From an uncultured Candidatus Saccharibacteria bacterium (GTDB lineage: Bacteria > Patescibacteriota > Andersenbacteria > UBA10190): DNA of 64,000 nt. The notes under the pieces are model-generated. The model was given only the letters and a program-made list of their open reading frames with translations, was not told the DNA's origin and did not search any database. Within the stretch, counting starts at the first letter, position 1, and every line of letters begins with the position of its first letter. The DNA lies in assembly GCA_964450915.1 (NCBI GenBank), contig CAYVFG010000002.1, positions 5,379 through 69,378 of the forward strand, read 5' to 3'. The translations under genes and the position numbers were made by a program. Below, piece by piece: positions 12,221 through 58,505 of the stretch.

Positions 12221-12835
12221 ATGCGCATTGCATGGTATGTATGTTTCATCACTTTGATCGTATTCGTATTTTTATACGCGTGGTATTTGCCTGCAAACAA
12301 TGCGAAACAACTTATTCTCGATTTGCCCGCGAACGGAATCAGCAAGAGTATTGCAGTTACGAATGATACGAAGATAGTTCAGGAGATTAGGCTAGAGCAA
12401 TCCGCAAATAGCATAGAATTGCCATTATGCGTTGGGCAGCCTAGTGCACCTGGAATGATTCATCTTACTGTTCTCAAGGATAGCAAGGTTATTACGGGAC
12501 AGGATCAGTATATTGAACCAGATATTGTATTTGCGTTGCCTGGTGCGGGAATTTCTGGGGATGTTACGCTTGAATTTGTATTTTCCGGAATAGAAAAGAA
12601 TAGCGATATTGCCATTCCTACTGCATTCGGAAAATATGCGAATTTGTCAGGGACGGTTACGCAATATGTATTGCAAGGCAATCAGTGGAAATCAGTTGAT
12701 ACCAGAAACGGCAATATTGCATTGACGCTGTACCATATTCCGCCAAAAAATCATGTATTTGCGATGGTAGAGTCATTTATAGTACCAATGATCGGAATAA
12801 TCGTATTCATAATTCTATGCGCAAAGAATTTGTAA
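12221..12835 (+). CDS. Membrane-anchored protein: N-terminal TM, a beta-rich periplasmic module, and a C-terminal TM. The track ORF begins at 12143, but the likely start is Met27 at 12221.
   Basis: AAGAGG lies 13 nt upstream of the ATG at 12221. The module motif KIVQEIRLEQSANSIELPLCVGQ...GMIHLTVLKD is shared with 18347, 56552 and 10011. Confidence 0.5.
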   Translation: MRIAWYVCFITLIVFVFLYAWYLPANNAKQLILDLPANGISKSIAVTNDTKIVQEIRLEQSANSIELPLCVGQPSAPGMIHLTVLKDSKVITGQDQYIEPDIVFALPGAGISGDVTLEFVFSGIEKNSDIAIPTAFGKYANLSGTVTQYVLQGNQWKSVDTRNGNIALTLYHIPPKNHVFAMVESFIVPMIGIIVFIILCAKNL

Positions 12836-14550
12836 TTATTTCGCTTGTTGGATTGCTGCTTGCAGGTATTGCGACGGCGCCATTATATGTTCATCCCGAA
12901 TATATAAGCAATCATGGTGATATCAATCGAGGATTGATATATAACGCAATTGCGAAGCGAGATATACTGAGCGGCCATCTGCCTGCGTGGAATCAATACA
13001 TTTGCGGAGGCATGCCGCTTGTGGGCGATTTGGAATCGTGGTTTCTGCATCCGATATTTTTCCTGACCTTTCCGTTTCCCGAGGTATTGGCGATGAAGAT
13101 AGGGTATACGCTGGTACTTTTCAGCTCGTTTGTGGGCTTTTATGCATTGGCTCGAATTATTTTAAAATTCAAGATTACAGGTGCTGCGCTGTTTGCAATA
13201 ATTGTAGCGTTTGGCGGGTACATCTCAGCGCACTTAGCAGAAGGGTATTACGTATGGACAGCAAGCGCATACGTGCCATGGTTTTTGTTGTCCGCCATGT
13301 TGGCATTGAGAAATTTGAAATTCATCCCGTTTGCCGGATTGATGCTCGCATTCATGTTTGGAGCAGGAAGTATGCATCTAGCCGTATACAGCATGCTTTT
13401 TATAGGGATTATATATGCATTCCCTATGGCTGAAAGCAAATTTTTCCGACGCGTTACACTATGGCTGGCGATCGGCGCGTTTTTCGTAATCCTATCTGCC
13501 GCAAAGCTTCTCCCGGCGCTTTCCCTTCTTACGGCAACCAGTTCCAGAGAAGGATTTGCGCCCGCTATTACAATGCTTCCGGAAATACTATTTGGCAGAG
13601 GATTGCTTGGGCCGGTCATGCAGGCCGGGCAAATAATTCGATGGGGAGAATTCGACGAATATATCGGAATGCTTACGGGAACTGTGGCTGTTATCGGCGC
13701 CAGCATATTTCGAAAAAGGCTATGGCATGCATACAAAGCATTTTTGGTCGCGAGCATTATAATGGCAGTTATTGCATTTTTGCCGTTACCGATTACGCAT
13801 GGATTTATCAGTCATGTTTTTGATTTATTCCGCATGCCAAGCAGGGTGTTGCTGTTTGCGGTATTTGGGATCGCGCTTGTTGCAGGATACGCAGTTGACG
13901 CAATTGCTTTGCCTCGAGGTGTTTTTGCGATAAAAGCGTTGATACTGCTTGTTATTACGCTGGATCTTCTTTCGAACGACATAACGCTTTTTTCTCGAAC
14001 GTTTACGGTGCCTCTTCCGGAAAAGCATGCGGAGACAACGTTTCAGCGAGTCAGCCATGCGTACACTTCTGGGGATGAGGTGTATTATCGGGCAATATAT
14101 TTGGATTTTCTGGAAAATAGAGGGACGAAGGATGTGTGCAGGTTTTATCAAGCGGGGCCGTTTAGTAGATCAATTGACGAAACGGATCCGAGGTATATCT
14201 CTCAAGGAGAAATATATTTGGATGATGCAAAATCCGGAACCGTCTCATATACAATGAATACCAGGAGCGAATATAGTATTCACGCAAACATTCAGTCAGC
14301 AACGCGAATTATCATTAATCAAAATTATTATCCGGGCTGGGTGGCAAGTTCCGGGCAAAGAGTTGAAAATTATCATGGCGTTATCGCTATTTCTGTCGTG
14401 CCTGGAATATATGATATTACGCTGAGGTACAATCCGAATACGGTGTATTGGGGAATGGGAATATCTGCGCTTGGTTTTTTGATTGGCTTGCTGGTGATTA
14501 TGAGAAGATCTGGTCGTACCACTGGCGATACCAATCAACAAACCTCTTAG
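12817..14550 (+). CDS. YfhO-family-like membrane protein (577 aa).
   Basis: SGHLPAWNQYICGGMPLVGD near the N-terminus is a YfhO-like motif. About 14 TM helices. Overlaps the preceding gene by 19 nt in another frame. Confidence 0.6.
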   Translation: MRKEFVIISLVGLLLAGIATAPLYVHPEYISNHGDINRGLIYNAIAKRDILSGHLPAWNQYICGGMPLVGDLESWFLHPIFFLTFPFPEVLAMKIGYTLVLFSSFVGFYALARIILKFKITGAALFAIIVAFGGYISAHLAEGYYVWTASAYVPWFLLSAMLALRNLKFIPFAGLMLAFMFGAGSMHLAVYSMLFIGIIYAFPMAESKFFRRVTLWLAIGAFFVILSAAKLLPALSLLTATSSREGFAPAITMLPEILFGRGLLGPVMQAGQIIRWGEFDEYIGMLTGTVAVIGASIFRKRLWHAYKAFLVASIIMAVIAFLPLPITHGFISHVFDLFRMPSRVLLFAVFGIALVAGYAVDAIALPRGVFAIKALILLVITLDLLSNDITLFSRTFTVPLPEKHAETTFQRVSHAYTSGDEVYYRAIYLDFLENRGTKDVCRFYQAGPFSRSIDETDPRYISQGEIYLDDAKSGTVSYTMNTRSEYSIHANIQSATRIIINQNYYPGWVASSGQRVENYHGVIAISVVPGIYDITLRYNPNTVYWGMGISALGFLIGLLVIMRRSGRTTGDTNQQTS

Positions 14551-16496: not shown

Positions 16497-16573
16497 ATAT
16501 CTGCAGTATACACAAGATGTAGTATGATGAAAGCATGGGAATTTTATTGCTGTATGAGGGAATATTGGATTCC

Positions 16574-17806
16574 ATGCATAAAAGAATTTTTGGCGTAACG
16601 ATGGGTCCAAAGACAATTGAGTTCTTAAAGCAATTGCACTGGTCGATGATTGGGGGAGTTGTTGCAGCAATTATTTCATTTGCAGTTTCAGTTTGGGCCG
16701 GACGCGTTCTTGGAACAGATCAGTATGGGCAGTACAGCTTCGCAGTGGCGACTGCGCAACTTATTGCATTGTTTATTACATGGAGTTTTGAAATTGCGAT
16801 TGTGCGCGCGCTTGCTTTTACAAGGGAAGATGCATCCAGCCAGAACTACATTATCTCTTCTGCGATTTTATTTTTAATTGTCACGATCGTATTGGCTAAC
16901 CTTGTTTCCTACCTTCTGCCGTTTCCATTCTTGAAAGGTATTGTTATGGCGTTTGCAACGGTGCTTGCTATCAAGCAGCTATTCGACGGAATGATGCGCG
17001 GACTAGGATTGTTCGGCTACCAGGCTGTCGGAAAAGTTATTGAGGCATGTGCGGTGCTTAGCGTCTTTGCCTTTATGGCGTACGAAGGGCTGCACTCATA
17101 TACATATTACCTGCTTGCCTCGTTACTCGGAGGATTCTGCCTCATCTTGTGGTACTCGGTGCGGATTCGATTCGATGCATCTTTCAAGCAGATTTCTCAT
17201 TCTGCATTTCAGGTATTGTGGACATACGGATCGCGCGCAATCATTTGGCTCGTACTATCGACCGTGCTTGGGTTTGCCGCAAAGTTTATTATCAAATATG
17301 AGCTGGGGAATCAATTTCTCGGACAGTTTGCGGCATATAACATGGTATCGATTACGGTAATGACATTTTTGGGAGGATTAATTGCCAACGTATTTTTCCC
17401 TGTTGCAGTCCAAGAAGGGGACAGTGAAGAAATGTGGAAGCGAATGCGCAAGGGAACGCTTGTGGGAGCATTGCCGTTATTAATTGCTGGTATTTTTATC
17501 ACAAATACCGCCGTAGCCTTATATGGGGATGCGTATTACCTCTCGCTTTGGTTCGGCGCCGGTATGGCTGTTATCGCCGTTATTCAATTTTTTACGGGCA
17601 TGTACTGGTGGGCTATCGCAAGCGATGGCGTGATTGGCGTGCGGTATATGGCGTTTCATAGCGCAGTTGGCGGACTCATATTCGTAGCGGCTCTGGCTAC
17701 GCTTCTTCATATGTATATGCTGTGGGGAATTATCATGAGCTACGGCCTCTGGAGTTTGTATGCTTGCGCCGTTATTTATAGGTGGCGAGTTATATTAAAG
17801 CACTAA
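16574..17806 (+). CDS. Polysaccharide biosynthesis protein, oligosaccharide flippase (Wzx-like, MOP superfamily).
   Basis: About 12 to 14 TM helices and the N-terminal pattern typical of Polysacc_synt-family proteins. Start chosen at Met14, with GAGGG 13 nt upstream. Confidence 0.6.
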   Translation: MHKRIFGVTMGPKTIEFLKQLHWSMIGGVVAAIISFAVSVWAGRVLGTDQYGQYSFAVATAQLIALFITWSFEIAIVRALAFTREDASSQNYIISSAILFLIVTIVLANLVSYLLPFPFLKGIVMAFATVLAIKQLFDGMMRGLGLFGYQAVGKVIEACAVLSVFAFMAYEGLHSYTYYLLASLLGGFCLILWYSVRIRFDASFKQISHSAFQVLWTYGSRAIIWLVLSTVLGFAAKFIIKYELGNQFLGQFAAYNMVSITVMTFLGGLIANVFFPVAVQEGDSEEMWKRMRKGTLVGALPLLIAGIFITNTAVALYGDAYYLSLWFGAGMAVIAVIQFFTGMYWWAIASDGVIGVRYMAFHSAVGGLIFVAALATLLHMYMLWGIIMSYGLWSLYACAVIYRWRVILKH

Positions 17807-18346: not shown

Positions 18347-20728
18347 ATGCATACAGGGGCATTTTTAAAACTATTTACGTATGTTCGGTCATATCCCGTA
18401 GTAGTTTTATTCTGCCTGTTTCTTATTGTGATTGCATGCTACCTTGCCGCGCCTATTTCATACAGCCGCATAATCCCAGCTCCGCAAGGCGAAAATGATC
18501 GATTGTATTTTGGGGGCGCGAAAGTCGTGTCCCAAGAATTTATTCCGCACACCGGGTTGTCGGAAATTAACGTTCCGGTAGGAAGCGCCGATCATCCTAA
18601 GACTCCTCTTATATTGCATATTCGAAAATCAGCTGACAGTAGTGACATTGTGGCCATACCGCTCTTCTCGCTACAAAATGAAACTGCAAAGTTCAGATTC
18701 AATCCGATACTGCTGCCGCCTTCTCGTTTAGTGTGGATTATTGAGGCTCCGCACGCTGCAGGAAATTCGTTTTGGACATATCGCGAACAGGATGTCACGG
18801 CGTTTCCGGAAGGCCACACATATCAAAATAACAGATCCGTTAAAGGTAATATCGGATTTTCGGAGGTATGGACATATCCAAGATTCGCAGCAATTATTCA
18901 TACATTTAAAACATCGTCAGGGCATGGATTTGCTCCATTCGAATATGCCAGCGCGTACGCGGGGATTGCGGCACTTGCGGGTGCTATGCTGCTGAAGCGA
19001 CGAAACATAGCCGAAAAAACTATTGTGCTATGGTGCATTGCACTTGGAATAGCTCTGCATATATGGCTCGCCCTCACCACGCCCGTTATTATTGATGAAG
19101 GCGCTTATATTCAGGATATATTGCAGGCATCGCACCATCTGCTCCCGTTCCGAGATTTTCTTACAAAAGGCCCCGCATACCTATTTATATTGTGGTTGTG
19201 GAGTTTTATAGTGCCGCACACCGTTGTTGCATGGAGGCTCCTCTCGGCAATCTTATGGGCATTGGGGACGTGGTGGTTTTGGCAGCTTGCAATTGAATTT
19301 GATTTGCAGAAACGCTCTCGACTTCTCGCGACTGCGGCATTCGGCATTATGCCGGCATCAATAGCGCTGAGTACGCCTTTGTTGCTCGAAACCGCAAGTA
19401 TCCCAATTTCTCTGTTAGGGCTTTTATGCATCATCCGATCAGCAAAAAAATCTTCCTGGAAACTTGCAGCGCTTGCAGGGGCAGTGTTTGCAATGGCATT
19501 TTTCGTGCGTGTTACTGCTGCTATTCCCGCATGTATTGCATTGATCGCGCTTCTCGTGTTTGCTAAAAAACAATTCAAAATAAAGTTAGCAGGTGCGTAT
19601 ATTGCAACTGGGCTTTTATTATTCGGTCTGATGTTCTGCTCGAGTGTGGCAATTATGGGCATTCATAAAGCATCCGTCGTGGTAAATATGGAAGCTCTCC
19701 TTATTTCTCAGAATCGCCAGCAGAATGTTCAAGTTTCTGATGCGCCCAGCGACCCTGCGTTTAGAACTATTATTATTCAATCTCGATTGCTATGGAGAAC
19801 TGGTGTTTTGTTTGTTGCGTCGCTTTTCTTAATTCCTCTCCTGCTTATTGATCGTCGAAGAATTCTACTGTCGTTTTCCATTTTTACTGCCCTGTTCTTT
19901 GCATGCAGATACGTTGTTCTTACGTTGTACGATACCGGGTTTTTGTTGCCGAAACACTTCGCCACCTCAGTACCGTTTATATTGATTATGATTATTGGAG
20001 TCCCGCTCCTTACTGCGTTCGCGGCGTTTTTCTATAATCGAACCGAAAAGATGCGAGACCACTCAACACAAGCCCTTTTCGTCATACTATTCTTGGTATG
20101 GCTTGCGTTCTCGGGGTACGCGTATGCAAAATATGGAAGATTTCGTCAAAGTTACCTTACTGAATTCATCCCTCAGCTGGCACTCTTTTTCGGAGTCGGG
20201 TTTCATTTCCTATTTACTACTTGGAGTGCCATAAGGCCCGTATGGCTTTCTCGGCTACTCACTGGCGGGATGTTGTTTTTAATGGGCGCAGGCGTATATC
20301 AAGGGTATGCAATGGCTGAGATGTTCCCGCATACCGGTACGGTGGATCAGGGAAGTCTCGTTCGTATTGTGAGGCTTATTCAAGAAAATGTTCCAAAAGG
20401 GGATATGATCTTTACTGCCCAGCCGGTAGCAACTGCGTTTTCTGAGCGACAGATCATGTTCGGGTATTCTCATCCCGGGTGGTATCGGGAAGCTATGTTC
20501 GGTACCGTTTCTGTAGAATTACGGAATCTATTATTCAGGACTCCTGAGGCGATAACCGATTATTTAAAACATGAAGCTGAATTCGTGCTGACGGATAGCA
20601 GAACAAATGAAATCTATTTCGATGGATATCCGGAGCGTGCTGCTATCCTGAAACAGGATTTTGAAGAAATTTCCTCCACTATAAACGAAACTGCAGGAGA
20701 TACGTACACCCTTTACCGTCGGCGCTAA
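18347..20728 (+). CDS. GT-C membrane glycosyltransferase, paralog family B. It carries an extra N-terminal anchor plus beta-rich module of about 220 aa.
   Basis: IIDEGAYIQDILQASHHLLPFRDF is a PMT_2 DE motif. C-terminal FTAQPVATAFS...HPGWY is shared with 22977. Confidence 0.6.
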   Translation: MHTGAFLKLFTYVRSYPVVVLFCLFLIVIACYLAAPISYSRIIPAPQGENDRLYFGGAKVVSQEFIPHTGLSEINVPVGSADHPKTPLILHIRKSADSSDIVAIPLFSLQNETAKFRFNPILLPPSRLVWIIEAPHAAGNSFWTYREQDVTAFPEGHTYQNNRSVKGNIGFSEVWTYPRFAAIIHTFKTSSGHGFAPFEYASAYAGIAALAGAMLLKRRNIAEKTIVLWCIALGIALHIWLALTTPVIIDEGAYIQDILQASHHLLPFRDFLTKGPAYLFILWLWSFIVPHTVVAWRLLSAILWALGTWWFWQLAIEFDLQKRSRLLATAAFGIMPASIALSTPLLLETASIPISLLGLLCIIRSAKKSSWKLAALAGAVFAMAFFVRVTAAIPACIALIALLVFAKKQFKIKLAGAYIATGLLLFGLMFCSSVAIMGIHKASVVVNMEALLISQNRQQNVQVSDAPSDPAFRTIIIQSRLLWRTGVLFVASLFLIPLLLIDRRRILLSFSIFTALFFACRYVVLTLYDTGFLLPKHFATSVPFILIMIIGVPLLTAFAAFFYNRTEKMRDHSTQALFVILFLVWLAFSGYAYAKYGRFRQSYLTEFIPQLALFFGVGFHFLFTTWSAIRPVWLSRLLTGGMLFLMGAGVYQGYAMAEMFPHTGTVDQGSLVRIVRLIQENVPKGDMIFTAQPVATAFSERQIMFGYSHPGWYREAMFGTVSVELRNLLFRTPEAITDYLKHEAEFVLTDSRTNEIYFDGYPERAAILKQDFEEISSTINETAGDTYTLYRRR

Positions 20729-22167
20729 CGCTTGAATATCCACACGTACGGGAGGCCGTTGATAGTGACAATATGATCGGGTGTTTTGTTGCTCTGCAGA
20801 TAGTTATTTACAATATCTGTTTCAGGGGCGTCGGCACCTCGTTCAAACATGGACCGATATATTACTACATAGTCAGCGTTAGAGTCGTCGATGTGCGTTA
20901 TAGGGTCAACCTGGCCATTGTAAAAGTATTGGAACACGCTTCCGTAATATGACAGTACTTTAGCTCCTGGATGATTCGTTTGTATCCATGCAGCAGCTTG
21001 TTCCAACCCTTCCCCCCAGCCGAGCTTATGCTGTGCCTCAATCGGATATAGTCGGTTATACTGAGCCAAATAATAGGGATATAAGCGAATATCGTCGATT
21101 GCTAAATATGCAATTGGAATCGCAATTGCCAGTAGAGCCCATCGTTTTGCGTATCGAAGGCCAAGGGGCGCGGCGATTACTAATGTCAGCATTGAAAATA
21201 ATACATATCGATCGCTTTTATCTGATCCAGTATTCAAAACGAATGCAAATATCGCCCCTGCGAACAAGAAGAATGTTACGGTAGCAGCGTGTCGAGATTT
21301 TCTGATATTCTTTAGTTGCCATAATCCAAATGGCAGCAATAGTGCTACTGGTACGGACATGCGGAAGAATATTTCTCGCGCATAGTACCAGGAGGCAGAC
21401 GTCGTTTGCTGTTCTCGTGTTCCTTCGGTATGCAGAGTTGCTCGGGTGAACAGCAAGTTCCACACCTTATCGGCATGAAACCATAGCGCTGGCCAAGCAA
21501 TGAATACGGACAGTGCAAACACCCCTATCCATAAGCACGACAATCTAACAAGAGTTCTGAGTCTATGATTCTTCTTCCAATTTTTCCATACAATAATTGC
21601 CAATGCTGTTGGAATAAGGATGATGGCAAATATTTTTGTGAGCAGCGCGAATGCTCCAAAGATGGCGCTTGCAATAATATATCTTCGCTGAACACGGGGT
21701 GTTATAAATGCACATAACAGGCTGGCGATAGATGCAAGATAGAACAATGCGAGCAGTGCATCCGTGTGAGCTATTCTGCTATGTGCGATTAAAAACGGAT
21801 CGAGTGCAAGAAAGAATCCTGTAATGAGTCCCCAGCGCTTGCCGATGAGCAGTATAAGAAAATAGGTAATAATGACAATAAGGATGCTTGTTGCAAGCGC
21901 GATTGCTGTTTGGGCAGCTGCAAGGGATCGCCATGGGGTAGAAAATCCAATGAGCCAGGTTGTGGTAACGCCTGGCTGGCCTGCTATGAGCGTTCGTTCA
22001 AAATTCCCTACAGAAAGACCGTTTATAAATGTTGCTCCTCGAGACATCCAAAGAGGCTCATCTGTAGTAAGGATATGGCCTAATCCGACGAGGCGGGGAA
22101 TAAAGACTGTTGATAGGAATATGAGGCCCACTATATATTTCTTTGTGCGCTGATCCAGAAATTTCAT
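20725..22167 (-). CDS. GT-C membrane glycosyltransferase, paralog family A.
   Basis: PRLVGLGHILTTDEPLWMSRGATF...QPGVTTTW and LGWGEGLEQAAAWIQTNHPGAKVLSYY. Confidence 0.65.
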   Translation of the reverse strand: MKFLDQRTKKYIVGLIFLSTVFIPRLVGLGHILTTDEPLWMSRGATFINGLSVGNFERTLIAGQPGVTTTWLIGFSTPWRSLAAAQTAIALATSILIVIITYFLILLIGKRWGLITGFFLALDPFLIAHSRIAHTDALLALFYLASIASLLCAFITPRVQRRYIIASAIFGAFALLTKIFAIILIPTALAIIVWKNWKKNHRLRTLVRLSCLWIGVFALSVFIAWPALWFHADKVWNLLFTRATLHTEGTREQQTTSASWYYAREIFFRMSVPVALLLPFGLWQLKNIRKSRHAATVTFFLFAGAIFAFVLNTGSDKSDRYVLFSMLTLVIAAPLGLRYAKRWALLAIAIPIAYLAIDDIRLYPYYLAQYNRLYPIEAQHKLGWGEGLEQAAAWIQTNHPGAKVLSYYGSVFQYFYNGQVDPITHIDDSNADYVVIYRSMFERGADAPETDIVNNYLQSNKTPDHIVTINGLPYVWIFKR

Positions 22168-22184
22168 ATGATTGATGCTGGCGA

Positions 22185-22892
22185 CTATTTTCGCGCAACT
22201 GCAATAAAATGCAATGCGAATATTTTTTTCTTGTCGCTATGATTATCGAGCAAAATTGCCATTTCCCCAGTGATTTTGCTTATTTGAAATACGATTGGCC
22301 ATACAAGTGGAATGTGATATGTCATTCCGACTGCCGTTGTTGCAATAATTCCTTGCAAGAACGAAAACAAGCTGCCAGAGGGTTCAAGATGCTCAACGGT
22401 GAATCCTACGCGTTCGAGCAATGTTCGAAGTCCATACTTCGTGTATCGATAGAAATCATTTGGTTCGTTGTGCAGATACATAAGGTGGGGAATGGAGATC
22501 ACCAGCTTTCCTCCCGGTTTGAGTACTCGATAAATTTCTCGCAACGCTTTTTCTGGATCGGGAACATGCTCCAGCACCTCTGCAGAAAGGACGGTATCGA
22601 ATGATTCGTCTGCAATTGGCATGTCTTGAATATCGGATTGGTAATCTAGCTCTGGGTGAGTATTGAACACATCCATGCTTTTATATTCCTCGCAAAAAGG
22701 AAGCACCAAGTGGCGGTAAGAAAGTTTGCCAGCCCCTGCATCAAGTAATTTTCCGCGAATATTTTCTTTATTGAGAATCTTTTTAAAGTCTACTAAGAGG
22801 GAATATCCAAGAGCGCTTCGTTCCCAAAAGGCATCAGAGCCGGACAGATTGTCAGAAGATTTGCTCCAATTGCTTTTAATCTTGTCATACAT
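22185..22892 (-). CDS. Class I SAM-dependent methyltransferase.
   Basis: LDAGAGKLSY (motif I) and VLKPGGKLVIS (post II/III). Confidence 0.8.
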   Translation of the reverse strand: MYDKIKSNWSKSSDNLSGSDAFWERSALGYSLLVDFKKILNKENIRGKLLDAGAGKLSYRHLVLPFCEEYKSMDVFNTHPELDYQSDIQDMPIADESFDTVLSAEVLEHVPDPEKALREIYRVLKPGGKLVISIPHLMYLHNEPNDFYRYTKYGLRTLLERVGFTVEHLEPSGSLFSFLQGIIATTAVGMTYHIPLVWPIVFQISKITGEMAILLDNHSDKKKIFALHFIAVARK

Positions 22893-22976
22893 TGCTTGAG
22901 CATATCATGTGATTTTTTTAAAAAAAAGCCCAACGAGCTACTGTCTTTATCCCGGATGATTTGATATTATGTTTTT

Positions 22977-24494
22977 ATGAATTCAAGTACTGTTCGGTTT
23001 TTTAGCGTATTGGCTGTAGCGTCCTTCCTCCTCCATCTCTTTTTAATTCCCCAGCTCAATATCATCGAAGATGAGAGCGCATATATGCAAGACGCTGCTC
23101 AGATTACAGCCCACGTGCTCCCATTTCGAGATTTCGGCGGAACGAAGGGGCCGTTGTGGCTCGTCATCTTCCATGGATGGCAAAGCGCGTTCGGCCATTC
23201 CCTTCTTGCGACGAGACTCTTTTCTTCTCTCGCCCATATCGCGTCGATATTCTTACTATGGTATTTCATCAAAACATTTCGTGTTTCAGATAAAGTTGCA
23301 TACATTGCTACCGCATTGTGGGGGTTGTCTCCGGTTGTGGTGAGCTTAACTACCAATATTACGCATATTCCACTTGAGTTGGTATGCGTCTTTGCTGCGT
23401 TCCTGTGTCTTCGGCAGGCGCGATACCGATACTTCTTTTTGGCCGGCCTACTGCTATTTGCTGCGCTGCTCATGAGGGCTACTGCCATCGCCTTTATTCC
23501 TTCTGCGCTTATCCTCATTCTCATTCGTACCGACAGGTGGGCAGTATTGTGGCGCGTTGTTGTGGCCGGATTGATAGCTCTTCTTGCTACGCTTGCTGTC
23601 GTATATCCGCTCTACGGTTGGCCAAAAACGGCATTCTTCTTTAATGCGGATGCGACGCTGATTGCTAATAAACAACGAGCTGTATACGCAGTATCTCAAG
23701 GCTCCATGTTTGATATGATCTATCAGGCTATTCAACCGCTTAGGGATGATGGACTAAGCATTCTGCTACCGGCCCTTTTATTGCCGTTGGTGCTTATATG
23801 GAAAGCAATTCGAAAGACGCAATTTCCTGCAGGGCTTGTTATGTTAATTTTAGTTTGGATAGGAAGTTTTCTTGTGTTTTATAAAGGATGGGGAAGATCT
23901 CCTACGCCATTTTATCCGCTCGAGTCAATTGCCGCGTTATGCATTGCGGCTGCACTTTCCATAGAGCAAGTGCTTGCCTGGGGTGAGAGGTTCAAATATA
24001 AGCATCTGGTTTCCGATGCATTGCTGATATTATTTGCAGCAAATATATTACTTACGTTTCACACTATTCCCGATCATCAGTATCGCGGTACGGTTGAGGT
24101 TTCGGCTGCCGAAGATGTTGCAAAGTACCTGAAAGAAAATGTTCAGCCGGGAGAAAACGTATTTACTGCTCAGCCAGTGTTCGTATATTTTGCAAACCTG
24201 CCTCTATACGGAAGGTGGACGCATCCCGGATGGTATCTCTCTGAGCGCGCAGGATATTTGCCTACAGAAATCAGACGGGTATTTTTCCCCGATATGGATG
24301 TTCTTACGAAAAAAGTTGCCAAAGATGTGACATGGATCGTTCTGGATTGGCGTACGCAAGATGTGTACTTCAACGAAGGAAATCCGAAGACAGAAGGGTT
24401 GCGAACTCTTCTTGCAACGAAGTTTGAAGATCTCCAGCAAGTTTCGAATTCCGCCTCTCGCGATATTCACATCTATCATAGGATTAAAAAATAG
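22977..24494 (+). CDS. GT-C membrane glycosyltransferase, paralog family B.
   Basis: IIEDESAYMQDAAQITAHVLPFRDF and C-terminal FTAQPVFVYFANLPLYGRWTHPGWY. Confidence 0.6.
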   Translation: MNSSTVRFFSVLAVASFLLHLFLIPQLNIIEDESAYMQDAAQITAHVLPFRDFGGTKGPLWLVIFHGWQSAFGHSLLATRLFSSLAHIASIFLLWYFIKTFRVSDKVAYIATALWGLSPVVVSLTTNITHIPLELVCVFAAFLCLRQARYRYFFLAGLLLFAALLMRATAIAFIPSALILILIRTDRWAVLWRVVVAGLIALLATLAVVYPLYGWPKTAFFFNADATLIANKQRAVYAVSQGSMFDMIYQAIQPLRDDGLSILLPALLLPLVLIWKAIRKTQFPAGLVMLILVWIGSFLVFYKGWGRSPTPFYPLESIAALCIAAALSIEQVLAWGERFKYKHLVSDALLILFAANILLTFHTIPDHQYRGTVEVSAAEDVAKYLKENVQPGENVFTAQPVFVYFANLPLYGRWTHPGWYLSERAGYLPTEIRRVFFPDMDVLTKKVAKDVTWIVLDWRTQDVYFNEGNPKTEGLRTLLATKFEDLQQVSNSASRDIHIYHRIKK

Positions 24495-24500
24495 CACTAT

Positions 24501-24704
24501 ATGAAATACTTGATAGTAAAATATCTTTGCGTGAGCGTTATAGGTGCATCATTAAACTATTTCGGTGGGGTAGTGTTAAGTGACATTATGGGCATCAAAT
24601 ATTACATCGCAGGCGTCATTGTGCTTCCGGTATCGTTTTGTATCGGTTTTGTGCTGAATAAGTATTGGGTATTTAAAACTCCAGAAGTCGTAAACGATAA
24701 ATAA
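24501..24704 (+). CDS. Half-size GtrA-like small membrane protein (67 aa, 2 TM helices).
   Basis: N-terminal KYLCVSVIGASLNYFGG and C-terminal VSFCIGFVLNKYWVFK match the GtrA family terminal motifs. It starts 6 nt after the family-B GT-C stop. Confidence 0.45.
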   Translation: MKYLIVKYLCVSVIGASLNYFGGVVLSDIMGIKYYIAGVIVLPVSFCIGFVLNKYWVFKTPEVVNDK

Positions 24705-24709
24705 AATTA

Positions 24710-26188
24710 TTATTTCGTTTTATATATCCAAACGTACTGTTCTCCATTGAGAGTTATTATTTTCTCCGGCGTCTTTGAGGCATAGTCTTTCAATACTTTT
24801 GTTTCCCAACGTTCGGGAGCTCTGCCTTCCATTGTCCTGTACAGCACCACATAATCTGCGCCTATTTCTTCTGCAGATTCTTTTCCTAATCGTTCTGCCG
24901 AGGTAAATTGTCCTTTGAAATGATAGGCGAATGATCCTTCGTAGTAGGCGGCAACAAGGAGATGTTCTGCATTTGGTTTGGTATTTAAGTAGTACGCTGC
25001 AAGATCAAGCCCCTCGCCCCATCCCATCGTGCGCCCTTGTGCTACGGAGGAGAATAAGGGGTTTCTATATGCAAGAAGATAAGGGTGCAACCTGATTGCC
25101 TCATGTGCTTGAAAGCCTATTCCCGTAATGCACACTATGAGAATGATGTTTTTTAGATATTTTTGCTTTGCCATGGCGTACGCTGTGGCAATAGAAAGCG
25201 TTGTGAGAATATCGAAGCCCAGAAAGACGGGGAGCATGTATCGATCTCCTTTTTTGATGGAATACTGAATTTCAAGGAAGAACATAATGCAGTATGCGAT
25301 GCCCAGTATGAGAGGCAGGCGATATTTGCTCTGCTTCCATAATGCTACGGGAACAAGGATGATTCCGATGAGCTGCAGAGGAGTTGTCCATAGCAAGAAC
25401 GCTTGCGGATACCACCATGGCCCTAATGCGTGCACCTGCTGAGTGAAGTGTTCTGTGGTAAAAAATGTACGGCTGCCTTGCCATACGTATTGAATATTTG
25501 TAATGAGAGTAGGGAATATAAGAATTGCTGCGCCCAGCATGCAAGAAATGTATATTACTATACCTTTTTGTAAGTCTTTCCAAGAAATATTCTTTGATGC
25601 AAGCGCAATGATATTTGCTATCACAAAGTAGGGGAGAATCCCAAATGCGGAAAGTTTTGATAATAGGGCAAGGGCGGTAAATACTCCTGCCCACGCAATA
25701 TCACTTGATCGTTTTTCTTTTATCCACAGAAGATGTTGCAGAAATGCTGCGATCATAAATATGCTCAACAGCGCGTCCATCGCGAGCACGCGCGAGTGGG
25801 CAATGAGCATGGGGTTAAGCGCCAGTAAAAATCCGCCTAGCAGCGCTGGGGCATCTCCCCATAGTCTTCTGAGGAGATAGGATAAATACAGGATAAATAC
25901 TCCAACAAAGAGCGCCAGGGGCAATCTTTTTTCGCCCCAGGTTGGCGCATCTATGGTTGCTGCGGCAAGCCATTGGGTCGTAATCCCCGGATGGGGTTGT
26001 TGATATAAGCCTTTAAAATCACCTGTTTTGAGCGCTTCTTTAAACCCTATCGTATTCTTTTCCCACTGAGTTTCATCGGGGGATGTAAAGGCATCAAGCG
26101 TGGCAATTCGAGGCACGATTGCGGTTAAAATAAGGAGGAGATATAGGCTATAAAAAAGACGGTTATTCATGTGGACAGTATATACCAA
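24710..26188 (-). CDS. GT-C membrane glycosyltransferase, paralog family A.
   Basis: PRIATLDAFTSPDETQWEKNTIGF...HPGITTQW and MGWGEGLDLAAYYLNTKPNAEHLLVAAYY. Confidence 0.65.
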   Translation of the reverse strand: MVYTVHMNNRLFYSLYLLLILTAIVPRIATLDAFTSPDETQWEKNTIGFKEALKTGDFKGLYQQPHPGITTQWLAAATIDAPTWGEKRLPLALFVGVFILYLSYLLRRLWGDAPALLGGFLLALNPMLIAHSRVLAMDALLSIFMIAAFLQHLLWIKEKRSSDIAWAGVFTALALLSKLSAFGILPYFVIANIIALASKNISWKDLQKGIVIYISCMLGAAILIFPTLITNIQYVWQGSRTFFTTEHFTQQVHALGPWWYPQAFLLWTTPLQLIGIILVPVALWKQSKYRLPLILGIAYCIMFFLEIQYSIKKGDRYMLPVFLGFDILTTLSIATAYAMAKQKYLKNIILIVCITGIGFQAHEAIRLHPYLLAYRNPLFSSVAQGRTMGWGEGLDLAAYYLNTKPNAEHLLVAAYYEGSFAYHFKGQFTSAERLGKESAEEIGADYVVLYRTMEGRAPERWETKVLKDYASKTPEKIITLNGEQYVWIYKTK

Positions 26189-26208
26189 ATTAGTGCATAC
26201 TGTGATTT

Positions 26209-28130: not shown

Positions 28131-29762
28131 TTAGCGGATATTTCGAATATCGTATATTTCTACCCGAGGCCCTGCGATATGCCAAAGCTGAGGAGAGATG
28201 CTGTATACTTTCTTTCCCTGGGTACGGATTTGATTGTAAAAAGCTTGGTAGGATGCAGTTGTTTCCGGAAATAGTTTTACTGACGTTGGGTCAAAATACC
28301 GATCAACGATCCTGCTATCCATTGCAATGTACTGCACTCCTTTTTCTTGAGTCCAATAAGAAAGAGGCTTTGCTCGATCATGGGATACCTCGGGGTCTTG
28401 GGCATTAAAATTCGCATACACTTCATCTATTCGAACTGTTTTGTAGTTCGGATCGCTCCAATCCAGAAGCCGAATGGGGGTGTGTTGGAGAATAATGCTT
28501 TCATGCGGAATATTCGCAAGAACCCACGCTACGGCTTTACTGTGTGTTGACCCCCCAGCATATGCAGCATCGAATCCTGCTGCAAAATATGCGGTATATA
28601 GAAGAAAGCTAATCGTGCCAATCCAAATAGCATACGTTGCTATTTTTATACGTGAGTATTTTTTCAAGAGTGCGTCGATTGCGTATGCAGCTAATAGCGT
28701 AAGTAGGGGAGTGAGTGGTAATAGGCGCTTTACTGCATAGAGCGGGAGACGGCCGATGATTGCGAGATACATGACGATTGAGGAGCCTCCAAGAATAACG
28801 AGAAGCGCCCAGTTGCGTGTTTTAATGAGGAGAAGGATGCCTACAAGCGCTAGAAGTATAATAACCGGAGTAGCCTCCCACCACAGCCCGGATACCGTAA
28901 ACGGCAAGCCCCAATCCGGAGACGATGTGGTAATCGGCCATATATAATCAGGGCGGGTATACCCTAAATCGCCTGCCGATCCTCGAAGTTGCAATTGATG
29001 ATAGATTGCGTAACTTTCTTTCCATTTTAAAAGCGTATACGGGGTTGCGCACGCAAAGCTGATCGGAATCAAGAGGATTGCGAGGATCAGCTTTTTAGAA
29101 ACAAGTGACGATATAGCAGAAGTTTTAGTTTCTACGCTCCGCATAATGTGCGCCAGGACGATGGCTATTCCTATGACAAACCCGGTATAATGAGTTGCTC
29201 CGCTTATACCGGTAAGAATTCCTGCGAGAACATACCATTTCATCGTTCCTAATTTCCATATTTGCAGTGCAGCAAAGAGTGCGCATGTGGCAACGAAGGT
29301 CAGCGGAATATCAACGTGCGCGTAGTGAGAATATTTCACGTGGAGAGGCAAAAATGCGATAAGGAGCGCAGCGATAAGACCAAGCCTCGGACTAGAAATT
29401 AATTTGCCTATTTTCCATACGACATATAACGTCGCTGTTCCGATAATTGCTGTCACAATGCGCGCGATGAGCGTATATATGTCTACGGACGTATCGGCGC
29501 TTGGGTACGGCATGTGCATCAAGGCAGGGGGAAGAAAGGCTACTCCGAGTATATAGTGATAGAAATGGGGATAGTATGATCCTTTTGGATACAACAACGG
29601 TACCTGTTTACCTTGAGCAAGCAGCACGGACGGAGTAATGACCTTATTTTCATCTGTATATATTTCATGGTTGATTCCCCACAGCCGTATAAAAAGCCCA
29701 ACTACCAGAATGCTAGCGAGAAGTATATTCATGAAATGGTATTTCTTTTGCGTATCTGCCAT
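28131..29762 (-). CDS. ArnT/PMT_2-like GT-C membrane glycosyltransferase. The start is either MADTQ at 29762 or MNILL at 29732.
   Basis: GINHEIYTDENKVITPS is a DE motif. About 12 TM helices. Tightly divergent from the Dpm1-like GT2 at 29779. Confidence 0.7.
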   Translation of the reverse strand: MADTQKKYHFMNILLASILVVGLFIRLWGINHEIYTDENKVITPSVLLAQGKQVPLLYPKGSYYPHFYHYILGVAFLPPALMHMPYPSADTSVDIYTLIARIVTAIIGTATLYVVWKIGKLISSPRLGLIAALLIAFLPLHVKYSHYAHVDIPLTFVATCALFAALQIWKLGTMKWYVLAGILTGISGATHYTGFVIGIAIVLAHIMRSVETKTSAISSLVSKKLILAILLIPISFACATPYTLLKWKESYAIYHQLQLRGSAGDLGYTRPDYIWPITTSSPDWGLPFTVSGLWWEATPVIILLALVGILLLIKTRNWALLVILGGSSIVMYLAIIGRLPLYAVKRLLPLTPLLTLLAAYAIDALLKKYSRIKIATYAIWIGTISFLLYTAYFAAGFDAAYAGGSTHSKAVAWVLANIPHESIILQHTPIRLLDWSDPNYKTVRIDEVYANFNAQDPEVSHDRAKPLSYWTQEKGVQYIAMDSRIVDRYFDPTSVKLFPETTASYQAFYNQIRTQGKKVYSISPQLWHIAGPRVEIYDIRNIR

Positions 29763-29778
29763 ACTGGCATCAGTATAT

Positions 29779-30495
29779 ATGATTACTTCACAGCGCACGA
29801 TTATTTTGATTCCGACCTATAACGAAGCCGAAAATATCGGTCTTATCCTTCGTCAAATTCAATCCGTGGATCCTGGCTTTAACGTATTGGTGTTAGATGA
29901 CAATTCTCCTGACGGGACAGCGCAGGTTGTGGAAGCATTTCATAAGGAGCATCCACCTGTTTCTGTATTAGTACGCACGAGCAATAGGGGGTTTGCTCAG
30001 TCATACCTCGATGGATTCAAGCGAGTATGTGCTGGAAGCGAATATGATGCCGTTATTACTATGGATGCTGATTTCTCGCATGAGCCAAAAGAATTACCGG
30101 AACTTCTTACGCTTTTAAATAACGGTGCAGATGTTGTGATCGGTTCTCGCTATGCAAAGCATCAGAAATTTCCGCATATTACATTGTGGCGCCGCATGAT
30201 GAGCCGATTTGCAAATGGGTATGTTCGCACGGTGCTTGGTATGCCAATCAGCGATTGCACTGCCGGGTTTATCGCGATGCGCACAGAGGCTCTTCGATCA
30301 TTGAATATGCAAGGCATACGGACAGAAGGATACGGATTTTTATTTCAGCTCAAGTACCGTGCCTATAAAAGCGGCCTTCGTTTAGCGGAACATCCGGTAG
30401 CATGGCCTGAGCGGCATCAAGGCAGCTCAAAAATGAATTTGAAACGGATATTCGAATCCTTCCTGTTGCCGTGGAAGATTAAATTCGGCTCTTAA
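29779..30495 (+). CDS. GT2 polyprenol-phosphate sugar synthase, Dpm1/GtrB-like. The track ORF starts at 29638; the likely start is MITSQ at 29779.
   Basis: IILIPTYNEAENIG and VLVLDDNSPDGT, ITMDADFSHEP DxD region, and GSRYAK. Confidence 0.8.
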   Translation: MITSQRTIILIPTYNEAENIGLILRQIQSVDPGFNVLVLDDNSPDGTAQVVEAFHKEHPPVSVLVRTSNRGFAQSYLDGFKRVCAGSEYDAVITMDADFSHEPKELPELLTLLNNGADVVIGSRYAKHQKFPHITLWRRMMSRFANGYVRTVLGMPISDCTAGFIAMRTEALRSLNMQGIRTEGYGFLFQLKYRAYKSGLRLAEHPVAWPERHQGSSKMNLKRIFESFLLPWKIKFGS

Positions 30496-32534: not shown

Positions 32535-33260
32535 ATGGATCAGTCTTCACGAAAGCCGAAAGTCATTGTTCTAGTGCCTTCGTATCGAGCCGGGAAGCAT
32601 GTGGTGGAAACGTATAACAGAATACCGAAAGAGGCTGTAGATGACATTATTATCGTAGATGATGCATCTCCCGATGATACGTTCGAATATGCAAAAACGT
32701 TGCCTGCAAAGGTATTTCGAAATGAAACAAACAAAGGATACGGAGGAAATATGAAAGTGTGCCTGCAGAAAGGGCTTGATGCAGGAGGAGATATTTTTAT
32801 TGAATTGCATGGAGACGGACAGTACGATGCAATGGATATTCCTCGAGCCGTTGCAGCTCTTCGTCCGACTGATGGCATGCTAATAGGAACTCGGGTAATT
32901 GCTTCGAATAAAGCGCTCCATAATGGGATGCCGCTCATCAAGTACGCGATGAATAAAATATTAACGTTTATTGCAAACGTTTTATTGGGCAGTAATTTAA
33001 CAGAGTTTCACTCCGGATTTCGCGTATATACTCGGAAGTTCTTAGAGACAGTCGATTTCGTCCATGATTCCGATGATCACTTGTTTAGCTTTGAAACAAT
33101 CGTCCAGGCATTGAAAGCCGGCTTTACAGTGGCAGAAATTCCTGTTGTTTGCACGTACTATGACGGGGTAACCCAGATGGGTCTCCGCAAGGGGGTAAAA
33201 TATACGCTCGAAATGCTCGGTACGGTACTTCTTTTTTCGATTGGAGTCCGCAAGAATTGA
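32535..33260 (+). CDS. GT2-family glycosyltransferase (Dpm1-like fold).
   Basis: VIVLVPSYRAGKHV and IIIVDDASPDDT; HGDGQYD as DxD-like. Confidence 0.8.
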   Translation: MDQSSRKPKVIVLVPSYRAGKHVVETYNRIPKEAVDDIIIVDDASPDDTFEYAKTLPAKVFRNETNKGYGGNMKVCLQKGLDAGGDIFIELHGDGQYDAMDIPRAVAALRPTDGMLIGTRVIASNKALHNGMPLIKYAMNKILTFIANVLLGSNLTEFHSGFRVYTRKFLETVDFVHDSDDHLFSFETIVQALKAGFTVAEIPVVCTYYDGVTQMGLRKGVKYTLEMLGTVLLFSIGVRKN

Positions 33261-48562: not shown

Positions 48563-49734
48563 ATTGCCATGATATATGCTAATACTTTTTCACTAGCCGT
48601 GCCGTCTGTTGTTGTAATCATTTTCTTGACTGTAATAGCGCGGTTAGACTGTTTCTCAGTTGGGTTTGTAAGCGACATTGCGATATCTTCTACTAGTTGC
48701 TTTGACGATGTTGCTATATGCGTTGCTCCGTCAGAAACTAGGTCGGCATAATGCTGTTGAAAATCTCGATAGACCATGCTTCTGTACCAGTTCCACCAGT
48801 CAAACTTTATTCCATATTTAGCGTTCACAATCGGAATGTCTGCAATCATAGATTCTAATGCAACAGTCGAAGAATGATTCACAAGCACGCCCGCGTGCAT
48901 GAACACGCCAATCAAAAAATAAATATCTTGTTCCGTAGGGGAGTATCGAAACGATTGCAGAGAAATACCTTCTTTTCTGCCCGGAGAAAATCTCACCGTA
49001 ACGCCATATTGATTGAAATTTTCATATTTTTCCAATACTCCTCCCGGATGCACCGATGCATACAAGTAGGGATTGTTCGGGATTTTTTTCTCATCGATGC
49101 CGTTTTTAATTTCTTTCACAATGTATTCCATCGGATATAGCTCCGTAGTTGCAATATGGATAAATGGTCTGAGTAAATCCGTAAAACCAAAAGCGCCGTA
49201 TACTGTTTCTTTGTTCGCAATCTTATCTGTATGTGCAAAGTAATCCATGCGCGGAGCGCCGATGATTGCAATGCGATCTTCCAAGACTTCTGGAAATACT
49301 CGCATTAAGTGTTCTTTCATCATGCTATTCCAGACAACGAATCGATCTGCGATCGCAACAGGGATATTATTTTTCAATAGTCGTTCTATCTTCCATACGT
49401 TGTCCCAACTTGCGATAAACGTTACTGTTGCAATATTCATTTTCTTTGCAATACGAAGAATGGGTTCGTCGAGAGCATCATGACCAACCGTATTAGTAAT
49501 CACCCGATCTGGCTGAATTGCGGAAAATAATTCTGTATGCTCAGCATCGTTTTTTGGATTTTCGTGAAAGATAAACTTCTGCCCAAATTCCGGAAATACT
49601 TGGTCAGATATGCTTGCAGCAGGGGTTATAATATGCACTTCTGCAATATCGTTTTGTGCCTCTAGGTGCCGTCGCAATGGTAATACAAGCTCTCGTATAT
49701 GATATCCGCTCGGTACGGAAAATAGCAGTTTCAT
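48559..49734 (-). CDS. Uncharacterised GT-B-fold-like enzyme. A TagF-like glycerophosphotransferase or capsule-type transferase is possible.
   Basis: Two-lobed alpha/beta pattern of about 390 aa with conserved His/Asp positions. No confident family assignment from sequence alone. Confidence 0.35.
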   Translation of the reverse strand: MKLLFSVPSGYHIRELVLPLRRHLEAQNDIAEVHIITPAASISDQVFPEFGQKFIFHENPKNDAEHTELFSAIQPDRVITNTVGHDALDEPILRIAKKMNIATVTFIASWDNVWKIERLLKNNIPVAIADRFVVWNSMMKEHLMRVFPEVLEDRIAIIGAPRMDYFAHTDKIANKETVYGAFGFTDLLRPFIHIATTELYPMEYIVKEIKNGIDEKKIPNNPYLYASVHPGGVLEKYENFNQYGVTVRFSPGRKEGISLQSFRYSPTEQDIYFLIGVFMHAGVLVNHSSTVALESMIADIPIVNAKYGIKFDWWNWYRSMVYRDFQQHYADLVSDGATHIATSSKQLVEDIAMSLTNPTEKQSNRAITVKKMITTTDGTASEKVLAYIMAI

Positions 49735-57969: not shown

Positions 57970-58505
57970 AGGCTTTTTATATAATCCTTTGTCTGAGACA
58001 TAGTAGGCATCACTGGATATACCCTAGCATGAATGTCGCTTACGCTCCATTGAACAGGTTCCCCGTCCGTAAACAGCATCATATCGATAGACTGGTTTGT
58101 ATCCTGAAACGATGCAGTAACTGGGAATAGCAATGTTTTCGTTTGCAATCCTGCCTTGTCTACATCTTTATTGTAGAGCTGTTCCTTATCATACCCAAGC
58201 CAAAATACGCCATTTCGGACGCCTAAGTCTATCGTATTTGCATGCTCGGGATTAAACGTGATAGTTATGGCAATCTCTTTTCCAAATACAGGAGAATTTA
58301 TAAATACATCTGCATGCGCTAAGGATTCTAAAATATGCGTAGTATTATCTTGAATAGGGTAGGGGATAGCATGTATGGTTTCCAATGGAGCAATGTTTAC
58401 CGGCCCCGAATACAAAATAGGGCGAATATATATAGCGCCCGTAATGATAAGCGCCAACAATATGCAGATGCTGCTATTTGCGAATAATCGATTTTGCATA
58501 CGCAA
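57945..58505 (-). CDS. Membrane-anchored hypothetical protein (186 aa) with an N-terminal TM helix and a beta-rich domain.
   Basis: N-terminal hydrophobic helix SSICILLALIITGAIYI. No recognised catalytic motif. Confidence 0.45.
   Translation of the reverse strand: MRMQNRLFANSSICILLALIITGAIYIRPILYSGPVNIAPLETIHAIPYPIQDNTTHILESLAHADVFINSPVFGKEIAITITFNPEHANTIDLGVRNGVFWLGYDKEQLYNKDVDKAGLQTKTLLFPVTASFQDTNQSIDMMLFTDGEPVQWSVSDIHARVYPVMPTMSQTKDYIKSLWNREREI

Follow-up and report, generated by a model that had tools for sequence, protein, structure and literature searches.

A free-standing single repeat of the GtrA family encoded beside a GT-C glycosyltransferase in a cell-envelope glycan cluster of Patescibacteria

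Introduction

Proteins of the GtrA family are assumed to be flippases of lipid-linked sugars in many pathways, among them the synthesis of mycobacterial arabinan, the glycosylation of teichoic acids and O-antigen seroconversion. We know of no activity and no stand-alone structure that has ever been shown for a GtrA-family protein. Here, we analyse a gene of this family, mini-GtrA, which encodes only 67 aa and lies directly downstream of B2, a gene for a glycosyltransferase (GT) of the GT-C class. Both genes are located on contig CAYVFG010000002.1, in a 64 kb cell-envelope glycan cluster of a Patescibacteria (candidate phyla radiation, CPR) genome; the whole 64 kb stretch that was analysed is referred to below as the window. 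A first-pass annotation of this DNA had proposed that the locus recreates, in a non-phage context, the GtrC plus GtrA arrangement of O-antigen glucosylation systems.

Three-component systems that combine a GT2 enzyme, a GtrA-family protein and a GT-C enzyme are the precedent for such a locus (PMC11127046, PMC8035078, PMC7389260). In the gtrABC cassettes of Shigella, Salmonella and Escherichia coli prophages, such as yfdG-yfdH-yfdI of CPS-53, a GtrA-family protein accompanies a membrane transferase that uses a polyprenyl-phosphate sugar, and extracytoplasmic glycosylation draws on a lipid-phosphate sugar made by a GT2 enzyme. The Gram-positive systems for teichoic-acid glycosylation join the GT2 enzymes CsbB or GtlA to GtcA and to the GT-C enzymes YfhO or GtlB; they are chromosomal and non-phage, and a single GtcA can be shared between pathways (PMC7389260). 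In mycobacteria, the GtrA-family gene Rv3789 is linked to the GT-C enzyme AftA, whose donor is a polyprenyl-phosphate sugar. Two synthases of lipid-linked mannose are also relevant: the type-III Dol-P-Man synthase of Pyrococcus furiosus (PfDPMS; 5mlz), with a catalytic domain and a transmembrane (TM) domain resembling GtrA, and human DPM1/DPM2/DPM3, in which the catalytic part and the 2-TM parts are located on separate proteins (PMC5526996). The locus described here follows the same logic as the gtrABC cassettes, with a GtrA-family protein of half the normal length.

Results

Mini-GtrA is a conserved gene encoding half a GtrA domain

The mini-GtrA gene occupies positions 24501..24704 of the forward strand. 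Its ATG at 24501 follows the TAG stop codon of B2 (24492-24494) after a gap of 6 nt, confirming the coordinates given in the first-pass annotation. The protein matches the Pfam profile GtrA_DPMS_TM (PF04138; IPR007267) with 35.5 bits against a cutoff of 26.1 (E 1.3e-8), and a precomputed PF04138 match is recorded for 7/7 close homologs. The match is limited to profile positions 1-56 of 117. A full GtrA domain consists of four TM helices arranged as two tandem hairpin repeats over ~117 positions, and mini-GtrA has two helices and a single repeat. The earlier description of this ORF as GtrA-like is therefore borne out by a significant profile match, with the qualification that only half of a GtrA domain is present.

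At least 11 other loci encode homologs of 63-67 aa whose stop codons lie within the contig, and the length is constant across at least 11 loci despite differing downstream genes. An alignment of these proteins contains 27 invariant columns. The non-synonymous divergence (dN) is 0.14-0.25 and the synonymous divergence (dS) is saturated, giving dN/dS values of 0.06-0.09 where computable. Mini-GtrA is a real gene under purifying selection.

The convergent gene on the reverse strand (24710..26188) ends 5 nt past the mini-GtrA stop codon, so that there is no room for a second GtrA half at this position. A six-frame hmmsearch of the window with all filters off did not find a second GtrA-like ORF that could act as a heterodimer partner. 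Judging from the spacing, co-transcription and translational coupling of mini-GtrA with B2 are probable. In the window, the two genes are in frame with each other (TAG cac tat ATG; 24492-24503), and we considered a fusion or readthrough product; this was rejected on the basis of the differing frames in the related loci L001, L002, L006 and L051. Given that relatives differ, the same-frame arrangement in the window looks coincidental. A promoter and terminator scan of 22100-26300 revealed nothing above background.

Four-helix GtrA proteins derive from a two-helix unit

The AlphaFold2 model of mini-GtrA is a helical hairpin (H2-30 and H34-57; mean predicted local distance difference test score, pLDDT, 82.7), and both ends of the protein are predicted to face the cytoplasm. 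Compared with PDB folds, the model comes closest to the TM domain of PfDPMS (probability 0.98-0.99, TM-score 0.75-0.79, root mean square deviation 1.3 A); the Foldseek E-values of 0.6-1.1 are not significant alone for so short a model, and the ranking is consistent. At the sequence level, the comparison of mini-GtrA with solved structures returned only a non-significant match, to the same PfDPMS domain (E 2.6).

A search of 1.84 billion representative proteins with a mini-GtrA profile hidden Markov model (HMM) yielded 142 relatives. In 105/106 of the relatives of 110-190 aa, the HMM produced two tandem near-full-length matches, and when the N-halves of GtrA proteins were compared with the C-halves by hhalign, the two aligned over 72 columns with 99.5% probability (E 2.4e-23). 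The tandem matches and the homology of the halves lead us to conclude that the four-helix GtrA protein arose when a two-helix unit was duplicated in tandem. PfDPMS is the only solved GtrA-like structure, and the likeness of its helix pairs agrees with the duplication; the two pairs have similar sequences, and their packing is pseudo-twofold symmetric (PMC5526996). Mini-GtrA is a free-standing single repeat of the GtrA family. It scores similarly on HMMs of the N-half and of the C-half, with the C-half slightly higher for its clade, which argues that it is not simply a clipped N-terminus.

Complete single-repeat proteins of 59-100 aa form ~23 clusters at 50% identity, all of them rare metagenomic sequences. 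The nearest full-length relatives of mini-GtrA likewise belong to Patescibacteria. Our literature search on half-size GtrA proteins and on internal duplication in the family found only the similarity of TMD1 and TMD2 in PfDPMS (PMC5526996) and a passing remark on '2 to 4 TMHs' (PMC12992685). A free-standing single-repeat GtrA protein under selection, together with the methyltransferase-coupled form reported below, appears to be undescribed. More distant single-repeat GtrA-like proteins of 69-76 aa, with an N-terminal 'HKxTLPKA' extension, were seen at L029:4941-5156 and its neighbours and in the context of P0010. These proteins sit among very small genes, the L029 neighbours including an MCM helicase, an HNH endonuclease and TnpB, and the L029-type setting may be archaeal, or viral or otherwise mobile.

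B1 and B2 are paralogous GT-C glycosyltransferases

The gene upstream of mini-GtrA, B2 (22977..24494, forward strand), encodes a protein of 505 aa, and its relative B1 (18347..20728, forward strand) encodes one of 793 aa. Both exceed the gathering cutoff of the Pfam family PMT_2 (PF13231; 26.1 bits), B1 scoring 29.3 bits and B2 34.3 bits. The first-pass annotation had grouped the two by the shared motifs II(D/E)(E/D)xAYxQD...LPFRDF and FTAQPV...HPGWY. These motifs are indeed present (IIDEGAYIQD and IIEDESAYMQD, plus LPFRDF, FTAQPV and HPGWY), and DE.AY, FTAQP and HPGW are confined to B1 and B2 within the window. In BLASTP comparisons, the two proteins align over the C-terminal 161 aa (E 7e-20, 25% identity) and over the membrane core (E 5e-17, 28% identity), and they are reciprocal best hits among the 18 large membrane proteins of the window.

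The AlphaFold2 model of B2, built with 37 homologs, has a pLDDT of 89.8 and a predicted TM-score (pTM) of 0.90. In a Foldseek search of the PDB with this model, the top 43 matches were all GT-C enzymes, including STT3/OST (1e-8), ArnT (1.6e-7, TM-score 0.61), AglB, ALG12, PglB, DPY19 and AftA, as well as ALG9, AftB, PimE, PMT and Emb. Residues D32, E33, Y36, D39 and Q42 of B2 are invariant among 37 family-B sequences including B1, and lie in the first outer loop, directly after TM1; their position is that of the catalytic acidic loop of the GT-C class. After the last helix, family B carries a C-terminal alpha/beta domain with invariant FTxQP and HxGWY. This pair of paralogs belongs to the GT-C glycosyltransferases, in the structural class of ArnT, PMT and STT3, with the fold modelled for B2, and the earlier assignment of a GT-C paralog pair is upheld. 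Enzymes of this class act at the outer membrane face on sugar donors linked to polyprenyl phosphate. From the fold class and from the PfDPMS-like GT2 enzymes encoded in the cluster, we infer that B1 and B2 may use donors of the same kind.

B1 begins with an N-terminal TM helix, followed by an extension of ~200 aa of unknown fold and then by the GT-C core. The IIDEGAY motif of its catalytic loop occupies residues 248-254, and FTAQP (at 689) and HPGW (at 709) lie in the C-terminal domain shared with B2. The N-terminal anchor and the ~200 residues after it (window 18347-19050, B1 residues 1-235) are absent in B2 and have no family match. Orthologs of B1, of 778-798 aa, are found in the same position in L001, L005, L006 and L054. 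Divergent from B1, on the reverse strand at 17803-18318, lies a gene for a 171 aa protein with one N-terminal TM helix, which is kept beside B1 in L001, L005, L006 and L054 (172-175 aa); the sole match of this protein is a weak, sub-threshold one to the Rv0361 C-terminal domain.

Neighbourhood of B2 and mini-GtrA in related genomes

We examined 11 B2-ortholog loci, the window included, in which the B2 proteins are 44-81% identical. The locus searches used one sequence pattern, covering only proteins with the ...LNKYWVF motif, and the family is undercounted. Mini-GtrA lies directly 3' of B2 on the same strand in 7/11 loci (the window, L001, L002, L005, L006, L051 and L056), with a spacing of -4 to +26 nt.

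Immediately upstream of B2 and divergent from it, the window encodes a class I S-adenosylmethionine (SAM) methyltransferase of 235 aa, MTase235 (22185..22892, reverse strand; Methyltransf_11, E 1e-18). An ortholog of MTase235 (239 aa in L002) is located divergently upstream of B2 in 11/11 loci, an association tighter than that of B2 with mini-GtrA.

A second arrangement was identified in seven loci, in which a single-repeat GtrA gene (59-63 aa) forms a two-gene module with a gene for a class I methyltransferase of ~185 aa (MTase185), usually with an overlap of ~14 nt. The modules are located at L051:6581-7322, L056:4524-5256, L010:2740-3469, L011:6001-6733, L009:1889-2636, L023:3124-3853 and L007:195-1034. 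The MTase185 proteins are mutual orthologs (53-88% identity), and the composite order B2-mini-MTase185 occurs in L051 and L056. The mini-GtrA proteins are thus split into 'solo' and 'methyltransferase-coupled' types. No MTase185 ortholog is present in the window, where the best match is the distant MTase235 (29-33% identity over 60-90 aa).

Full GtrA domains also form parts of fusion proteins, with a GT4 in P0110, GT2s in P0061 and P0112, and a class I methyltransferase in P0032. Such fusions suggest that enzymes acting on lipid-linked substrates use the domain as a general membrane module. We considered the P0032 fusion as a specific Rosetta stone and rejected it at this level; its methyltransferase is remote from both of those described here (27% identity, E 8e-6), and the fusion is informative at the domain-family level only. 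The most distant B2 ortholog in the loci examined (44%, 578 aa) is followed at L053:6784-9996 by an SGNH/AlgX-like protein, a 74 aa ORF and a carbamoyltransferase, which suggests that this lineage has a different glycan-tailoring set.

TM-less GT2 enzymes as candidate donor synthases

Three GT2 enzymes of the window are candidates for the synthesis of a lipid-linked donor. GT2a (29779..30495, forward strand) is a polyprenyl-phosphate hexose synthase-like protein of 238 aa when read from an internal Met of ORF 29638..30495, and its orthologs have 238-239 aa. GT2b (32535..33260, forward strand; 241 aa) is weakly closest to the models of PpgS, AglJ and dolichyl-P-hexose transferases; its NCBIfam PpgS match (E 9e-19) is well below the equivalog cutoff. 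GT2c (52171..52875, reverse strand; 234 aa) is DPMS-like (Pfam GT2, E 3e-30) and shares the MDADFSH and GxSKM motifs with GT2a, of which it is a paralog as judged by sequence.

None of the three has a TM or hydrophobic segment: the maximum 19-residue hydropathy is 1.1-1.4, compared with 2.33 for E. coli GtrB. Among PDB sequences, GT2a is closest to the PfDPMS catalytic domain (5mlz; chain residues 22-240, E 1.1e-29), ahead of ArnC. The PfDPMS match ends at about the point where the GtrA-like TM domain of PfDPMS starts (native residue 230, corresponding to chain residue ~252 with an inferred tag offset of 22 residues). GT2a is a TM-less catalytic GT2 of the DPMS type, as expected of one part of a split synthase, and on sequence grounds it could be the enzyme that makes the lipid-linked donor.

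Comparison with known systems

The locus does not belong to the gtrABC cassettes. GtrA of these cassettes has 120 aa and four TM helices, compared with 67 aa and two for mini-GtrA. In CPS-53 of E. coli K-12, the genes overlap in the order gtrA-gtrB-gtrC, whereas in the window the GT-C gene precedes mini-GtrA and the nearest GT2 gene is ~5 kb away. GtrB has two C-terminal TM helices, which are lacking in GT2a, GT2b and GT2c, and GT2a aligns with E. coli GtrB over the first 120 residues only (24% identity, E 2e-10). BLAST revealed no significant similarity of B1, B2 or mini-GtrA to YfdI, YfdH and YfdG. The proposal that a GtrC plus GtrA arrangement has been recreated here is not supported by the gene order, by the absence of an adjacent GtrB-type GT2 or by these comparisons. 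The cassettes are carried by prophages, and neither Pfam nor further protein searches found phage genes in the 64 kb window; the non-phage setting noted in the first-pass annotation is therefore correct. It is not new in itself, because the GtcA/YfhO-type and Rv3789/AftA systems are already well known (PMC7389260, PMC8035078, PMC11127046).

The Gram-positive systems are closer in that a chromosomal GtrA-family protein serves GT-C enzymes, and YfhO-like proteins are also encoded in the window. Based on published residue numbers rather than on an alignment, Y8, N19, N53, V57 and F58 of mini-GtrA are in register with Y24, N35, N69, V73 and F74 of GtcA. However, GtcA has four TM helices, and R95 and N132, which are essential in GtcA, belong to its second repeat, absent from mini-GtrA as a separate unit. 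The mycobacterial pair offers a similar parallel, with a GtrA-family gene linked to a GT-C gene and AftA among the fold matches of B2, and the debate on whether Rv3789 is a flippase or an anchor applies equally to mini-GtrA (PMC7389260, PMC12992685). Unlike mini-GtrA, Rv3789 is a four-helix protein, and the donor in that system, decaprenyl-P-arabinose, derives from phosphoribosyl pyrophosphate (PRPP), a route unrelated to the DPMS-like GT2s of the window.

With respect to PfDPMS, GT2a corresponds to the catalytic domain and mini-GtrA to one TM helix pair, and the division between separate catalytic and TM proteins resembles that of human DPM1/DPM2/DPM3. The window differs from both in that the catalytic and TM genes are ~5 kb apart, and in that only one kind of 2-TM unit is encoded. 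The polar-pocket residues of PfDPMS are reported to be absent from GtrA proteins (PMC12992685), and by our own mapping onto native numbering, with an assumed 22-residue tag offset, mini-GtrA has G49 where PfDPMS has R341. Apart from mini-GtrA, the locus is a standard extracytoplasmic glycosylation system, with a rare variant of one part.

Content of the 64 kb window

The whole 64 kb window is devoted to glycan and envelope biosynthesis: the Pfam-matched ORFs are all of this kind, and the remaining ORFs have no match. No tRNA genes were found in the window. Positions 1-64000 form one glycan super-cluster with five GT-C genes above the PMT_2 cutoff and two sub-threshold ones, two or three YfhO-like genes, ~8 GT4, 6 GT2 and one GT9 gene, ~7 methyltransferases, four epimerase/dehydratases, one deacetylase and one TagF-like protein. 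Such an outlay is very large for a genome of the CPR type. The gene convergent to mini-GtrA (24710..26188, reverse strand; 492 aa, PMT_2 39.1 bits) is a GT-C gene of a second family, A, with members at 4627.., 20725.., 24710.. and 36587.., which is distinct from family B and from the YfhO-like family. Also encoded in the window are MurJ (55005..56555) and two transporters of the MOP type that are Wzx-like (16535..17806 and 58474..59904).

Six large ORFs of 473-759 aa have no Pfam match (2591-4012, 10011-12173, 12817-14550, 34113-35795, 38139-40172 and 59901-62180). At least one of them, 12817..14550, is related to the YfhO-like protein 49731..51878 (BLASTP E 3e-11), and the six may be further unrecognised GT-C-like enzymes.

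Discussion

With somewhat more confidence than doubt, we propose that the locus encodes an extracytoplasmic glycosylation system of three components, with polyprenyl-phosphate sugars handled by a homodimer of half-GtrA proteins. In this model, the TM-less PfDPMS-like enzymes GT2a and GT2c, and possibly GT2b, would load a sugar onto polyprenyl phosphate at the inner membrane face. Two copies of mini-GtrA would pair in parallel and rebuild the four-helix, pseudo-twofold GtrA module, which would bind the lipid-linked sugar and hand it over, either by flipping it or by merely docking and presenting it. B2, and possibly other GT-C enzymes, would then move the presumed sugar onto an acceptor, presumably a surface glycan, outside the membrane. 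In sister lineages, the coupled small methyltransferase may modify the sugar at the hand-over stage.

A parallel dimer is plausible because the GtrA repeats are homologous and co-oriented, the halves of PfDPMS are pseudo-symmetric, and no second unit is encoded nearby. SemiSWEET and SWEET proteins provide an analogy, in which a single-repeat protein coexists with a tandem-duplicated family and the SemiSWEET dimers are structurally proven. By analogy only, homodimerisation would be expected to give mini-GtrA the architecture of the duplicated family; the folds of the two families are unrelated.

Several observations weigh against the three-component model. Mini-GtrA was not found within the fetched flanks (3-5 kb on each side) of B2 in 4/11 loci, namely L052, L054 and L055, where the B2 orthologs are 56-65% identical, and L053 (44%), so that B2 does not strictly need mini-GtrA beside it. 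Conversely, B2 is absent beside the mini-GtrA/MTase185 module in 5/7 loci (L007, L009, L010, L011 and L023); a module found in seven loci, five of them lacking B2, counts against a system built around the pair. The mini-GtrA tree also disagrees with the B2 tree: the B2 protein of the window is 74% identical to that of L056 and 66% to that of L006, whereas its mini-GtrA (24501-24704) is 59% identical to L056:4524-4715 and 79% to L006:7251-7454. It seems that the slot 3' of B2 was exchanged, or that the methyltransferase was lost more than once. The first-pass annotation asked whether relatives keep the GT-C/GtrA linkage and would have taken its loss as refutation; this refutation holds in part, since the linkage is real but lineage-limited, and B2 is not the sole partner of mini-GtrA. 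With regard to the donor, the three GT2 genes lie 5-28 kb from mini-GtrA. In addition, MurJ and the two Wzx-like transporters of the window could do any flipping, and a full-length GtrA protein may exist elsewhere in the genome, beyond the 64 kb window. Flippase activity has been experimentally shown for no GtrA protein (PMC7389260, PMC11127046), and throughout the family the module may either flip the lipid or only dock and present it (PMC7389260, PMC11127046, PMC12992685).

The same observations bear on other explanations, of which a docking or adaptor role ranks as the main rival; we regard it as possible, if doubtful. Here, mini-GtrA would not act as a flippase or be dedicated to B2. It would instead serve cytoplasmic enzymes, as a membrane adaptor or a subunit for substrate docking, in the manner of DPM2 and DPM3 with DPM1: MTase185 in the sister lineages, and MTase235 or the TM-less GT2s in the window. 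Its place after B2 would reflect the insertion of a mini-GtrA and methyltransferase module from which the methyltransferase was later lost. The adjoining and usually overlapping MTase185 genes in L007, L009, L010, L011, L023, L051 and L056, the composite order in L051 and L056, the fusions to a methyltransferase (P0032), a GT4 (P0110) and GT2s (P0061 and P0112), and the four B2 loci with no mini-GtrA in their flanks are in keeping with this idea; the methyltransferase pairing and the fusions in particular lean towards a general docking role. The architecture of the known synthases also fits an adaptor, since PfDPMS joins a GT2a-like catalytic domain to a GtrA-like TM domain and human DPM1 is a TM-less protein served by two separate 2-TM proteins (PMC5526996). 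Yet mini-GtrA is strongly conserved in the window, where there is no MTase185 ortholog, it adjoins no GT2 gene, and it shows no Pfam similarity to DPM2 or DPM3 at E <= 1. The need for an anchor is not obvious either, as PfDPMS without its TM domain stays membrane-bound and active (PMC5526996). By analogy with the model in which Rv3789 anchors AftA (cited in PMC7389260 and PMC12992685), mini-GtrA might instead be a dedicated accessory subunit of B2, which recruits or stabilises the enzyme or adds two helices to its bundle. The tight same-strand coupling in seven loci fits such a role, as does L005, which retains the B2/mini-GtrA pair despite a different downstream gene. We nevertheless consider a dedicated B2 subunit improbable: four B2 orthologs have no mini-GtrA in the fetched flanks, the paralog B1 never has one, mini-GtrA occurs in five loci without B2, and the two phylogenies are incongruent.

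The last explanation, to which we give almost no weight, is that the 67 aa ORF is a chance ORF or the decaying remnant of a full-length gtrA gene cut by its neighbour. It would account for an ORF of half the normal length that abuts a convergent gene. It does not account for 27 invariant columns among homologs with saturated synonymous sites, for the low dN/dS, for the same length beside different downstream genes, for the ~23 clusters of complete single-repeat proteins, or for the about equal scores on the N-half and C-half HMMs. A truncated pseudogene is effectively refuted by the conservation and the dN/dS values.

Two findings bear on the GtrA family as a whole: its four-helix members originated by tandem duplication, and single units are maintained by selection. 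Together, they make mini-GtrA the smallest possible test object for the family, with a symmetric dimer as the predicted working form. In this CPR genome, the enzyme of the PfDPMS type is divided between genes, one for a TM-less protein with the catalytic part and another for half of the TM part. The half-module is coupled to a methyltransferase no less readily than to a GT-C enzyme, which speaks for a general function in the presentation of lipid carriers rather than for strict flipping.

Returning to the homodimer model, we tentatively extend it to the single-repeat proteins of 59-100 aa as a group, in a form that may well prove wrong. These proteins could constitute a natural 'semi-GtrA' class, a minimal homodimeric module for polyprenyl-phosphate sugars whose tandem duplication gave rise to the four-helix GtrA protein and to the TM domain of the archaeal Dol-P-Man synthase. 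If the semi-GtrA reading is true, the activity of lipid-sugar translocation or hand-off, still to be demonstrated, would reside in a peptide of ~60 residues that is within reach of chemical synthesis, and the unit would be reused in ultra-small bacteria as a plug-in partner for GT-C enzymes, methyltransferases and GT2 and GT4 enzymes.

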